From positions 4,480,001 to 4,544,000 of the forward strand of contig OZ241867.1 of the NCBI GenBank assembly GCA_965203175.1: DNA of 64,000 nucleotides. Direction: 5' to 3'. The position numbers and the translations under genes were made by a program. This document shows, in pieces, positions 10,967-37,623 of this stretch. Position 1 is the stretch's first letter; every line of letters starts with the position of its first letter. The stretch comes from Candidatus Latescibacterota bacterium (GTDB lineage Bacteria > Latescibacterota > UBA2968 > UBA8231). Under the pieces are notes generated by a model. It searched no databases and was not told the origin of the DNA. It saw only the letters and a program-made list of their open reading frames with translations.

Positions 10967-11128
10967 ATGCCAAGTAAACTGAGTATTTTCTTTGAGTTAT
11001 GGGATTTTATGAAGGTGCGCAAAAAGTGGTGGTTGGGGCCGATATTTGCCACTTTGATCCTGTTAGGGCTGTTAATTGTCACAACCCAAGGATCAGCAGT
11101 AGCCCCGTTTATTTACGCCCTGTTTTAA
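10967..11128 (+). CDS. DUF5989-family small membrane protein, 53 aa; not in ORF track
   Basis: MPSKLSIFFELWDFMKVRKKWWLGPIFATLILLGLLIVTTQGSAVAPFIYALF*. Confidence 0.85.
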   Translation: MPSKLSIFFELWDFMKVRKKWWLGPIFATLILLGLLIVTTQGSAVAPFIYALF

Positions 11129-11154
11129 GTCTTATAACATATAATATGTAAAAT
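11127..11154 (+). repeat. dif-like site A
   Basis: AAGTCTTATAA-CATATA-ATATGTAAAAT; left arm identical to sites B/C. Confidence 0.7.
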
Positions 11155-11665
11155 GAATATAAAAGAACTCATCCGCGAAGTCCCCAATTTCCCGCAAGAC
11201 GGCATTTTGTATAAAGACATCACGCCGCTGCTCAAGGACCCCGCTGGTTTATCCGCTGCGGTCCAAATTATGCTCAAACCCTTTGCGGACTCCGAAGTAG
11301 ACGTCGTCGTCGGCATAGAAGCCCGCGGCTTTGTCTTTGCGACACCCATGGCCCTCGAGTTAGGATGCGGTTTTGTGCCGGTGCGCAAACCGGGTAAGCT
11401 ACCGGCGGCCACGCTGCGCCGCGAATACGCACTCGAATACGGCGAGACCTCTCTGGAAATCCATACCGATGCCATCGCGCCGGGGCAGAAGGTCTTGGTC
11501 GTGGATGACGTTTTGGCCACCGGTGGAACCTTGGTGGCGACGTGTCAAACGCTTGAAGAGTTGGGAGCGGTTGTCGTGGGCATCAGCGTTTTGGCCGAGT
11601 TGAGCTTTTTGTCGGGCCGCCGCCTCTTGCACGGGTACAAATTGGCAAGTGCTATCGTCTATTAA
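11153..11665 (+). CDS. apt: adenine phosphoribosyltransferase
   Basis: GILYKDITPLL, GIEARGF, RKPGKLP, LEYG, VDDVLATGGT. Confidence 0.96.
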   Translation: MNIKELIREVPNFPQDGILYKDITPLLKDPAGLSAAVQIMLKPFADSEVDVVVGIEARGFVFATPMALELGCGFVPVRKPGKLPAATLRREYALEYGETSLEIHTDAIAPGQKVLVVDDVLATGGTLVATCQTLEELGAVVVGISVLAELSFLSGRRLLHGYKLASAIVY

Positions 11666-11702
11666 AACCTGAACCTAAAACCAGGGGGAAGCAATACCTT
11701 TC

Positions 11703-12371
11703 ATGTCGAGTGAACGCCGTAGACTGAGCAAGAGCGAACTCCGCGAAGATGAGTTCGTCGAATGGATCATGGAGGCAGTCGAGTACGTCAAAGAGCGCGC
11801 TCGCCTCTTTGGCGGTGGAGCCGTCGCTGTGATCGCGGTCATTATGGCCATCAATTATTTCATCGAGTCCAAAGAGGCCGATAGACTCAAAGCCGCCGCG
11901 CTACTCGGCGATGTGCTGATGGTCGAGCAGGGCGGCGAGCCAACCGAGGCGATCCGCTATGCCGAGGAACTGGTATCCTCTTATGCCGGGACCACAGCTG
12001 CAGCCCAAGGGATCGTACTTTTGGCTAATCTCCACTACTCACAGGGCCGCTATGGCGAGGCTCGAGGTTACTACCAGAGCTACTTGGACAACTATGAGCC
12101 TGTAGATGTGCTGGTCCACGCGGCCCAGAGCGGTCTCGGTGCCTGTCTCGAAGCTGAAGGGCAGCTCCTAGCCGCGGCCCAGCACTACGAAACCTATGCG
12201 GCCCAGCAGGCGGGGACCATCCGCGAGGCCATGGCGCGGATGGAAGCCGCCCGCATATATGGGTTGGCCGGCGAGAGCGACAAGCAACAGGCCCTACTCA
12301 AACAAGTCAGTCGCACATTCGCCCAGTACCCGATTGCCGCTCAAGCCCGCGCTGCACTAGCCATGTTCTAA
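11703..12371 (+). CDS. membrane-anchored TPR protein (YfgM-like)
   Basis: KSELREDEF, single TM, TPR-like helices. Confidence 0.75.
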   Translation: MSSERRRLSKSELREDEFVEWIMEAVEYVKERARLFGGGAVAVIAVIMAINYFIESKEADRLKAAALLGDVLMVEQGGEPTEAIRYAEELVSSYAGTTAAAQGIVLLANLHYSQGRYGEARGYYQSYLDNYEPVDVLVHAAQSGLGACLEAEGQLLAAAQHYETYAAQQAGTIREAMARMEAARIYGLAGESDKQQALLKQVSRTFAQYPIAAQARAALAMF

Positions 12372-12379
12372 GGGGGCTA

Positions 12380-13305
12380 TTGATGGGCAGTACAGATCTC
12401 AAAGTTTTCGCTGGGCGAAGCAACCCCGCACTGGCAGCAGGCATTTACCAGTCGCTGGCCATTGAGCCAGGACACATCGAATTTATCGACTTTAGCAACG
12501 AAAATATAAAGGTAAAGATCTGCGAAAATGTACGCGGCCACGATGTGTTCTTTATTCAAACCTCGTGTCCTCCCGTCAGCGACTACTTGATGGAGCTGCT
12601 CATAGCTCTCGACGCCCTAAAATACGCCTCGGCCGGCCGCATCACCGCCGTTCTGCCTTACTATCCGTATGCTCTGGCCGACAGCAAGGACGAACCAAGG
12701 ATTTCCGTGGCGGGTCGTCTGGTGGCGGATCTAATCGCTGAAGCGGGGGCGGACCGCATTCTCACCATGACCTTACATAGCCCTCAGACTATGGGCTTTA
12801 GCCGGATCCCAGTTGATCAACTCAGCGGCGTCCCGGCGATATGTGCTTATTACGCTGACCTCGACCGAGACAACTTAGTCGCTGCCGCTCCGGACATCAG
12901 TCGCGCCAAGGTCACCGAAACCTATGCCCAGCGGTTGGGGTTGCCCCTTGTAGTCGTTGATCAGGGTGCCGGGGAAAACAGGGTCATTGGCGACGTAGCC
13001 GGCCGAGATGTCGTATCTTCGACGACGCGATCATTACCGGCACTTCCATCCTCAGGGGGGCTGCTGCGGTTAAAGAGCGCGGAGGGCGCAAAATCTACGC
13101 TGGTTGCGTTCACGGCACCCTCACCAAGGAAACGCTAGCGAGGTTGGATCAGTCCAGCCTGCAGGCGCTCGCCATTACCGATACGATTCCCTTGCCAGCG
13201 GACGCTAGCACTCCCATGATGCAGGTGTGCTCCGTGGCCCCTCTCTTTGCCCGTGCTATCCGCGCTATCCACGAAGAAACGTCTATTAGTGCGCTATTCA
13301 ACTGA
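12380..13305 (+). pseudogene. prs: second prs paralogue with 1-nt frameshift at ~13014
   Basis: Prs homology to GRDVV, then continues in the -1 frame from 13015: IFDDAIITGTS...GCVHG...ITDTIP...AIRAIHEETSISALFN*. Confidence 0.85.
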
Positions 13306-13317
13306 GGCGAAGCCGTT

Positions 13318-36400: not shown

Positions 36401-36502
36401 AGTGAATTAAGCAATTAATCTACGTATCATAGTGTGGGGCAAGATGTTCTATCGATAAAGGTATATGGATATTACGCCGACGGCAATACCTTAGAAAGAA
36501 AT

Positions 36503-36536
36503 AAAAAATCCGCCCGACCCAGTTGGCCAGGCGGAT
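36503..36536 (-). terminator. intrinsic terminator after tRNA-Gly
   Basis: Minus strand ATCCGCC...GGCGGAT then TTTTT. Confidence 0.7.
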
Positions 36537-36538
36537 AG

Positions 36539-36613
36539 TGGAGCGGGAGACGGGAATCGAACCCGCGACATCAAGCTTGGGAAGCTTGCGTTCTACCCCT
36601 GAACTACTCCCGC
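36539..36613 (-). tRNA. tRNA-Gly(CCC)
   Basis: GCGGGAG...CAAGC-TTCCCAA-GCTTG...GGTTCGATTCC...CTCCCGCTCCA. Confidence 0.96.
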
Positions 36614-36653
36614 TAATTTTGCGGTCCTAAGGTAGGAGAGGCCCCAATCGCTG

Positions 36654-37604
36654 TCAACCCAACCTGCTGCCCCATCGATACTCCCACTCGTCGACGATGC
36701 GCTGGACGACGCCGGCCTTTTCCCATGCATCGAGATCTAATTCGCGCAGGCGGCGGTCGCGGCGGCACCAAGTTATTTGCCGTTTGGCCAAGTGGCGGGT
36801 ACGCTGTTTGGTCCGCTCGACAGCTTCCTTCCAAGAGCAATGCCCTGCCAGCGCGTTGCATATTTCGAGATAACCCAAAGTCCCCAAGGCGCTGTTACTT
36901 GGGTCGTAGCCCATTTCGCGCAAGGAGCGGACTTCCTCGCCCCATCCCTGCTCGACCATTTGCTCGACCCGCTGATCGATCCGCTCGTAGAGCCGATTGC
37001 GCGCCATAGTCAGACTAATCATCTGTGGCTGCTGTACAAGGGGTTGTCCCTTGCGCTCCCGCCATAGCGTGCTGAGCGCGCCCTTTCCGACCATTACCAC
37101 CTCCAAAGCCCGCAGGATCCGCTGTGCGTCACCCGGCTGCAACCGAGCTTGTGCGACCCGGTCCCGACGGCCTAACTCCTCGTATAGAGATGCCAGTCCC
37201 TCGCAATGCAGGCGATTTTGTAATTCGGCGCGGACCGGCGCGTATTCGGTCACATCCTCAAAGCATCCGTCCAGTGCACTCTGCCAGTACAGGCCGGTCC
37301 CTCCAACCATAATGGGCAGTCCCTCTCTGTTCCAGACCTGCTCAATGATCCTCCGAGCGGCTCGCTCATACGCTCCCGCGCTGTAGGTTTCCTCGGGATC
37401 GATCACATCAAGTAAGTGATGAGGGCATTGGTTTTGTTGTTCAGCGGTTGGCTTGGCCGTGCCGATATCCATGTAGCGGTAGATTTGCCGCGAGTCGGCC
37501 GAGATGATTTCCACTTTGGGCAAGTGCTGGGCTACTTTGAGGGCTATTTCTGTTTTGCCTGTGGCGGTGGGTCCGGTGATTAGGATTAGTTGTTTGATTA
37601 ACAT
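36654..37604 (-). CDS. miaA: tRNA dimethylallyltransferase
   Basis: GPTATGKT, SADSRQIY, IGTAKP, GGTGLY, AKRQITW. Confidence 0.96.
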   Translation of the reverse strand: MLIKQLILITGPTATGKTEIALKVAQHLPKVEIISADSRQIYRYMDIGTAKPTAEQQNQCPHHLLDVIDPEETYSAGAYERAARRIIEQVWNREGLPIMVGGTGLYWQSALDGCFEDVTEYAPVRAELQNRLHCEGLASLYEELGRRDRVAQARLQPGDAQRILRALEVVMVGKGALSTLWRERKGQPLVQQPQMISLTMARNRLYERIDQRVEQMVEQGWGEEVRSLREMGYDPSNSALGTLGYLEICNALAGHCSWKEAVERTKQRTRHLAKRQITWCRRDRRLRELDLDAWEKAGVVQRIVDEWEYRWGSRLG

Positions 37605-37623
37605 ATTATTTATTATATGACTA
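37596..37623 (-). repeat. dif-like site E
   Basis: Reverse complement TAGTCATATAA-TAAATA-ATATGTTAATC; spans the rqcH stop to the miaA start. Confidence 0.65.

Follow-up and report, generated by a model that had tools for sequence, protein, structure and literature searches.

The window described here, a 64,000-bp stretch of the chromosome of an uncultured bacterium (G000:C1:4,480,001-4,544,000, from a single-contig genome of 6,579,469 bp with 59% G+C), contains the replication terminus of that ~6.6-Mb Candidatus Latescibacterota chromosome, and the terminus carries what is, on all of the sequence evidence gathered, a polar array of six dif-type sites that is specific to this region and conserved throughout the genus. 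The six putative sites (F, A, B, C, D and E, from left to right) span 44 kb centred on the fine maximum of GC skew, three on each replichore, and all of their right arms face the centre. The innermost two, B and C, enclose a cassette of three genes, one of which (xer3) encodes a tyrosine recombinase of the Xer family. Relatives of the source organism are, according to public records, metagenome-assembled genomes of Candidatus Latescibacterota, several of them complete long-read chromosomes, and the runs that carry the stretch itself are mostly sponge metagenomes.

A polar array of dif-type sites at the terminus

In each of the six sites a 6-bp AT-rich spacer separates two 11-bp arms, the right one of the XerD type, and each corresponds in this respect to a dif site as generally defined (28 bp, with two imperfectly inverted 11-bp arms, one of them of the XerD type, around a spacer of 6-8 bp). 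The right arm, TTATGTAAAYA, agrees with the XerD arms of Bacillus subtilis and Escherichia coli. Sites B and C share 34 identical bp in inverted relative orientation. A preliminary description of this stretch, made from its letters alone, had named five sites with an 11-6-11 layout; all five were found with the sequences, coordinates and strands that had been given, and the layout, the AT-rich spacers and the XerD-type right arm were likewise borne out. The count, on the other hand, has to be raised, since a sixth site (F) lies 6.4 kb to the left of the window.

The restriction of these sites to the terminus was evident from two kinds of genome scan. A position weight matrix trained on the four distinct sites (B and C being identical) gave scores of 38-44 bits for the five sites of the window and of 33 bits for site F, on which it had not been trained; the next match in the 6.58 Mb of the genome scored 22.8 bits, and 23 matches overall reached at least 18 bits. 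Because such a matrix favours its own training set, a loose pattern, TATAANNNNNNWTATGT (TATAA-N6-WTATGT), was scanned as well. It matched seven times in the genome, six of these matches being the array itself in the order F+ A+ B+ C- D- E-, and the reversed pattern, used as a control, gave no forward and one reverse match.

The position of the terminus is indicated by several landmarks. The cumulative GC skew of the genome reaches its maximum at ~4.48-4.50 Mb, and the peak of the 1-kb skew (4,499,000) falls between site B (4,496,694) and site C (4,500,230). The sole match to dnaA lies at 1,237,831, only 29 kb off the antipode of the array centre, so that the array is found where a dif site would be expected, at the skew switch opposite the origin. 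Genes to the left of C are read from the + strand and genes to its right from the - strand. The preliminary description had set as a test whether the sites cluster only at the skew extremum and switch strand there; that they do was evident from the genome-wide matrix and pattern scans taken together with the 1-kb skew. Over ~0.5-2.4 Mb of the genome the cumulative skew is almost flat and irregular, while the slopes on either side of the terminus are clean; the flat part may have arisen through rearrangements or acquired DNA on the origin side.

Circular bacterial chromosomes are taught as carrying one dif, any further copy being regarded as a likely source of harm through the deletions or inversions that it would invite. 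The chromosome described here departs from that rule with six copies, and all 31 genomes of the genus carry such sites, in numbers of up to six. A literature search over titles, abstracts and selected passages found in these parts of the sources no description of such an array, nor of any Xer or dif system in Latescibacterota.

Table 1. Sites, genes and other features in and around the array (window positions, except for site F)
Feature	Position	Strand	Remarks
tRNA cluster (Arg-CCG, Pro-GGG, Pro-CGG)	1414-1720	+	
Site F	genome 4,473,596-4,473,623 (L001:11596-11623)	+	ATAGCATATAA AAATTA ATATGTAAATA
DUF5989 small open reading frame	10967-11127	+	53 amino acids; stop codon abuts site A
Site A	11127-11154	+	AAGTCTTATAA CATATA ATATGTAAAAT
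Site B	16694-16721	+	left inner site
Invertible cassette u174-mutL-xer3	16722-20229		3.5 kb; both orientations among species and strains
u174	16733-17257	+	174 amino acids; predicted membrane protein; no family above cut-off
mutL	17264-19054	+	DNA mismatch repair
xer3	19208-20182	+	divergent Xer-family tyrosine recombinase
Site C	20230-20257	-	right inner site
leuS	20277-23162	-	start is the ATG in the right arm of site D, the only possible leuS start
Site D	23154-23181	-	ATGTCTTATAA GGATAA TTATGTCAATC
tRNA-Gly (CCC)	36539-36613	-	just downstream of miaA
miaA	36654-37604	-	start is the ATG in the right arm of site E
Site E	37596-37623	-	TAGTCATATAA TAAATA ATATGTTAATC

Conservation across the genus and the phylum

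A stricter pattern, CHTATAANNNNNNWTATGTHAA, was scanned over 31 genomes of the genus, the order of sites being judged by eye from the table of matches. It gave 136 matches distributed over all 31 genomes, and none when reversed. The maximum per genome was six; exactly three sites on each strand were found in ten genomes (in nine of these on a single contig), and all + sites came before all - sites without exception in the 27 contigs that had at least two matches. The spacing of the sites (~17, 5.6, 3.5, 2.9 and 14.5 kb) and their order were constant wherever they could be read, from which it follows that the six sites are orthologous. Conservation in relatives, for which the preliminary description had called as a check, was accordingly found for all six sites, with their polarity kept. 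No rearrangement involving the outer sites was visible among the genus genomes in which the order is readable.

The spacers vary between genomes, remaining AT-rich. At site D, all 23 genomes compared agree at positions 3-7 of the left arm and 7-9 of the right arm, none of which was fixed by the search pattern; the third codon positions of the adjoining aspS gene, taken as a comparison, show a mean pairwise identity of 0.81. Set against that figure, the invariant positions suggest that the arms are under selection.

Beyond the genus, the neighbourhood of xer3 persists over considerable distances. The arrangement in which mutL and xer3 converge upon leuS is held in loci whose xer3 is 58-97% identical to that of the window, with the single exception of L026, and the longer order, hprK-mutL-xer3 converging upon leuS-aspS-pnp, is retained in loci at 58-78% identity. 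In the exceptional locus (which belongs to genome G047) only xer3, lying between two inverted sites, has been flipped, and no leuS stands in its usual place. Several distant loci likewise have an inverted pair of sites around xer3 alone, and most of the distant loci have one dif-like site directly after or before xer3, its right arm pointing towards the gene. Pattern scans of these distant genomes gave between one and four sites beside xer3, convergent wherever there were several: + + - - in G047 (four sites over ~39 kb), + + - in G055, + - in G048, G050, G053 and G056, and one site each in G049 and G051. One further genome, G054, was scanned and left out, its matches being scattered across several contigs. 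The recurrence of a site beside xer3 throughout the phylum implies that a module of site plus xer3 at the terminus is old, and arrays have grown in several lineages, always in convergent orientation.

Inversion of the innermost cassette

The segment between the two inner sites, u174-mutL-xer3, is found in both orientations. When 24 loci of the genus were oriented by xer3 (the window being counted separately), 14 of them, and the window, had the cassette in one orientation and ten had it inverted, the synteny of the flanks being constant. A tree of mutL and xer3 from 23 genomes (15 with one orientation and eight with the other, two short contigs having been left out) requires at least six changes of orientation, five of them forced by well-supported branches; labels shuffled over the same tree gave a mean of 6.8, and orientation is on this measure distributed nearly at random. 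Three pairs of sister genomes joined by very short branches differ in the orientation of the cassette.

The same difference is seen among strains. Contigs of run X18, ~99% identical to the window, hold both junctions expected of the inverted form (16691 with 20259, and 16721 with 20232, in each case on opposite strands), at depths of 51.5 and 53.8, which equal the depth at which the main strain is present. One contig from run X2 crosses site B in the orientation of the window, and those of runs X1 and X17 stop at the 34-bp repeat and so say nothing about the cassette. The innermost pair of sites, to judge by these junctions and by the tree, does recombine often, flipping the cassette between species and between strains that are ~99% identical.

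Within flipped sister pairs the identity shared by B and C can be as low as ~14 bases (L014), which makes an exchange of the RecA type unlikely. The inner segment retains the spacer and right arm in L014/L015 and L005/L011, and does so on the u174 side in L008/L009, as would be expected if the exchange took place where left arm and spacer meet. A hand count found the spacers of B and C to be identical in six of the 20 genomes that have both sites. The earlier suggestion that unmatched spacers block exchange fits the outer sites, each of which has a private spacer and none of which shows rearrangement; B and C do recombine, which makes of the array something more than a set of inert binding sites.

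The cassette resembles an invertible DNA switch of the Hin kind, in which the recombinase is encoded within the segment that turns, in that inverted sites surround a segment present in both orientations. It follows co-directional genes whichever way it lies (u266 or leuS), however, and no on/off output of the inversion is therefore obvious.

A segment bounded by inverted Xer-type sites also recalls the pdif modules of Acinetobacter, described in excerpts of PMC12907356 as mobile dif modules that carry antibiotic-resistance genes, form chromosomal islands and are assembled into multi-module arrays. That the sites should be junctions of mobile dif modules, or of integrated elements that exploit Xer (IMEX), with the dif-module islands of Acinetobacter or the CTX phage as models, is nevertheless scarcely credible. 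Its cargo consists of core housekeeping genes (prs, rsgA, hprK, mutL, leuS, aspS, pnp and infB) rather than mobile accessory genes; gene order is conserved down to 58% identity of xer3; the sites are orthologous, and they read + + + - - - rather than alternating or lying in direct orientation; and the arrangement has been inherited vertically, at a single locus, in all 31 genomes of the genus.

Xer3 and the recombination machinery

The xer3 product scores 130.7 bits against the XerC model and 121.1 bits against the XerD model, in both cases far under the cut-off. Aligned to E. coli XerD, it retains the residues of the catalytic motif (Arg, His-x-x-Arg, His and Tyr), and it is by this measure a third and apparently catalytically intact Xer paralogue. 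The recombinase at 19208 to which attention had first been drawn is in this way placed in the Xer family, and throughout the phylum its gene is tied to a site at the terminus. Its relatives comprise 306 proteins at E <= 1e-20, of which the 120 among the matches listed are all at least 60% identical; those listed are named generically as tyrosine recombinase, XerC or XerD, and the ones named after an organism come mostly from Latescibacterota.

The genome has three further matches to tyrosine recombinases: XerD (344.6 bits, above its cut-off of 329.6), a XerC-like protein (318.4 bits, slightly under the cut-off of 335.15) and one match of the integrase family (90 bits). An FtsK with the gamma domain (FtsK_gamma, 99.2 bits) is encoded, as is SMC, and the cognate partners of a dif site (XerC and XerD, with FtsK gamma) are in this sense present. 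XerD scores above its cut-off in all 31 genomes of the genus, and the XerC-like protein is found in 29 of them (279-291 bits with the XerD model), with a truncated match of 252.5 bits in one more. A match of the xer3 class (113-125 bits) occurs in every genome of the genus except the least complete, and it adjoins a site of the array wherever the same contig has a matched site.

Other candidates for a terminus-binding protein were considered. Profiles for Tus (PF05472) and RTP (PF02334) had no match in the genome of the window, which is 93% complete. A non-Xer protein encoded nearby was rejected as well, u174 being a membrane protein and u266 belonging to no family, and neither of them showing a DNA-binding domain. 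The u174 product appears to have two membrane helices and a charged C-terminal tail, and has a weak match (22 bits) to GvpG.

Overlap of the sites with gene boundaries

The genes that surround the array run, on the + strand, in the order prs, the DUF5989 small open reading frame, site A, a phosphoribosyltransferase gene, a TPR gene, a prs-like gene, a phosphoesterase gene, rsgA, hprK and u266, followed by site B, u174, mutL, xer3 and site C. Those of the - strand follow in the order leuS, site D, aspS/asnS, pnp, ribF, truB, infB, nusA, der and tRNA-Gly, and beyond it miaA, site E, a gene of the NFACT family and valS.

Four of the sites (A, B, D and E) precisely occupy gaps between the stop of one gene and the start of the next. 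Site A shares its first base with the end of the stop codon of DUF5989, and its own final two bases open the ATG of the phosphoribosyltransferase gene; B lies between the stop of u266 (16692) and the start of u174 (16733); D comes immediately after the stop of the upstream gene of aspS/asnS type; and E lies between the stop of the NFACT-family gene (37621) and the start of miaA. The spacer of D, GGATAA, provides the ribosome-binding site of leuS (AGGA), seven bases ahead of the ATG in the right arm. That D and E have TATGTCAA and TATGTTAA in place of TATGTAAA is explained by this use of the ATG, since the last of these sequences would put a stop codon directly after it. Site C occupies the convergent gap between the stops of xer3 (20182) and leuS (20277). 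Site F overlaps the stop codon of a McrC gene, with genes for a McrB-like AAA_5 protein and McrC just upstream, and the DctM gene of a TRAP transporter converges upon it from the right. C and F, both in convergent gaps with no downstream gene, are alone free of the stop/ribosome-binding-site/start overlap. The overlap of the other four with gene boundaries partly accounts for their orientation and for some of their conservation.

Two alternative explanations take this overlap as their starting point. According to the first, which we regard as very unlikely, the sites are operators, bound by a transcription factor, or promoters, and control a small regulon (the phosphoribosyltransferase gene, u174-mutL-xer3, leuS and miaA); four of the six lie directly 5' of genes and in the orientation of those genes, with TATAA 7-8 nt ahead of the ATG. 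Against this stand the location of D and E within apparent operons, immediately after an upstream stop, and the site-specific inversion of the inner pair. A promoter or leaderless start was likewise rejected as a general explanation, the motif being absent elsewhere in the 6.58 Mb of the genome, and C and F having no downstream gene.

The second alternative, an improbable one, holds that only the inner site or sites act as a functional dif, and that the outer ones are near-neutral remnants of past inversions by Xer that were symmetric about the terminus. The polarity would then follow from the viability of products from inverted left-right pairs only, and the outer sites would have been retained because they overlap stops, ribosome-binding sites and starts. 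The exact fit of A, B, D and E to their gaps, with the ribosome-binding site of leuS in the spacer of D and two start codons in the arms of D and E, agrees with such a history, as do the frequent inversion between B and C and the range of one to six sites across the phylum. Other observations are difficult to reconcile with it: the GTCTT of the left arm of D, which has neither a coding nor a ribosome-binding role, is invariant in all 23 genomes compared; F and C are conserved in their convergent gaps, where no downstream gene would hold them; and the flip between B and C is the only rearrangement seen in any genome, with no trace of the inversions that are proposed.

A proposed redundant terminus-marking zone

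The reading towards which we lean is that the array forms an extended zone of redundant, multiple dif sites that marks the terminus. The Xer machinery would bind the six sites and recombine there, its components being XerD with the XerC-like protein, the Xer3 encoded between the innermost sites, or both. The outer sites (F, A, D and E) would bind the same proteins, and their private spacers would prevent them from recombining with one another. Polarity might be kept for two reasons: left-right pairs of sites are inverted, so that a stray exchange would produce an inversion symmetric about the terminus instead of a lethal deletion, and any machine on its way from the origin to the terminus (FtsK, SMC or the replisome) would meet the same face of the complex at each site. 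Recombination between sister copies of any single site could resolve chromosome dimers, and outer sites bound by Xer proteins may mark the terminus for FtsK and/or SMC, in the manner of the XerD-binding sites of B. subtilis.

Several points weigh against this reading. The genomes of the genus are kin, and 31 of 31 does not amount to 31 independent observations. Constraints of coding and expression could underlie part of the conservation of A, B, D and E, as well as their orientation parallel to genes. In L008/L009 a difference in the left arm (CC as opposed to CT) moves with the inner, u174 side, which a clean exchange between arm and spacer does not predict; branch migration, gene conversion or independent mutation could have caused it. 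A search for octamers skewed in the manner of FtsK-orienting polar sequences (KOPS), for which the origin was placed at the antipode, yielded no more than G-rich words of weak skew (the best at 459:174), and in the absence of a strongly polar octamer a switch of FtsK polarity could not be mapped. Finally, the need for six sites in one cell is not explained by the present measurements.

The systems that the array most resembles each share some of its properties. Like the XerCD/dif system of E. coli and B. subtilis, it has 28-bp sites of 11-6-11 layout with a XerD-type right arm (TTATGTAAA), lies at the skew switch opposite dnaA, and is accompanied in the genome by XerD, a XerC-like protein and FtsK gamma; it differs in having six convergent sites rather than one, a third Xer paralogue inside the array and an inner pair that flips a cassette. 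The single-recombinase systems XerS/difSL and XerH/difH have the recombinase gene beside its presumed site, as xer3 is across the phylum, and excerpts of PMC5357621 describe xerS as lying immediately beside difSL in one module. Here, unlike in those systems, the recombinase has not replaced XerC and XerD, since XerD and a XerC-like protein are also present, the spacer has the ordinary 6 bp and the sites are several. An inverted pair of dif sites is shared with Lactobacillus delbrueckii, in which two oppositely oriented copies at the terminus lie inside inverted repeats of 38-76 kb (excerpts of PMC5345009), whereas the repeat found here is limited to the 28-34 bp of the sites.

A second group of comparisons concerns proteins that act on the terminus from bound sites. 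The XerD-binding sites of B. subtilis are essentially XerD-only sites of the terminus region, independent of XerC, and are reported to unload SMC (Karaboja et al. 2021). The unloading of SMC by XerD near the B. subtilis terminus is also cited in passages of PMC12322038 and PMC11840125. The array resembles that system in having several Xer-type sites confined to the terminus of a genome that encodes SMC, and departs from it in conserving both arms with their 6-bp spacing and in the recombination of its inner sites. To the Tus-Ter and RTP-Ter fork traps the likeness is one of architecture: the terminus is flanked by two opposed groups of asymmetric sites, with the gene for the protein presumed to bind them beside the innermost ones. 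No Tus or RTP homologue was found here, and the sites are taken to be recombination sites.

From these likenesses arises a further alternative, namely that Xer3 and/or XerCD, bound to the six sites, form an orientation-dependent barrier that lets a machine pass from the origin side and stops it from the terminus side, on the right-arm (inner) face of a site, and so would serve as a fork trap or as a roadblock or unloader of SMC. We consider such a barrier unlikely. To our knowledge no tyrosine recombinase is known as a polar barrier to forks; the catalytic residues are preserved in Xer3 and recombination occurs at the inner sites, which indicates that the proteins act as recombinases; and both arms are conserved here, whereas the B. 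subtilis sites are essentially for XerD only. In favour of a barrier, the opposed groups of sites flank the skew switch; the gene of a presumed DNA-binding protein linked to the sites adjoins the innermost ones, as tus and rtp do theirs; no Tus or RTP homologue was found in this 93% complete genome, in which SMC is encoded; and bacterial XerD is described as unloading SMC complexes close to the terminus (excerpts of PMC11840125). If the barrier were real, it would be a third, independently evolved replication fork trap or, alternatively, a bacterial counterpart of convergent CTCF sites, with three concentric pairs halting or unloading SMC (or FtsK).

The significance of the array lies in its persistence: an entire genus keeps six full inward-facing sites, as many as four, likewise convergent, are retained in remoter lineages of the phylum, and a dedicated third Xer recombinase has been kept alongside an innermost pair that recombines. 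The array offers a natural system for the study of how spacers insulate sites from one another, of the effects of polarity on FtsK, SMC and the replisome, and of the ways in which fork traps, unloading sites and other arrangements of the terminus evolve, and its predictions can be tested even though the organism is uncultured.

Other features of the window

A search of the window with Rfam and ARAGORN found four tRNAs only (Table 1), none of them at the dif-like sites. Two genes resembling ribose-phosphate pyrophosphokinase lie 1.4 kb apart, at 10013-10963 and 12380-13138, and the second of these (252 amino acids) matches only the family of the N-terminal domain. The ribF-like open reading frame at 26954-27373 (139 amino acids) matches the riboflavin kinase (Flavokinase) domain only, with no FAD synthetase domain seen in the frame.

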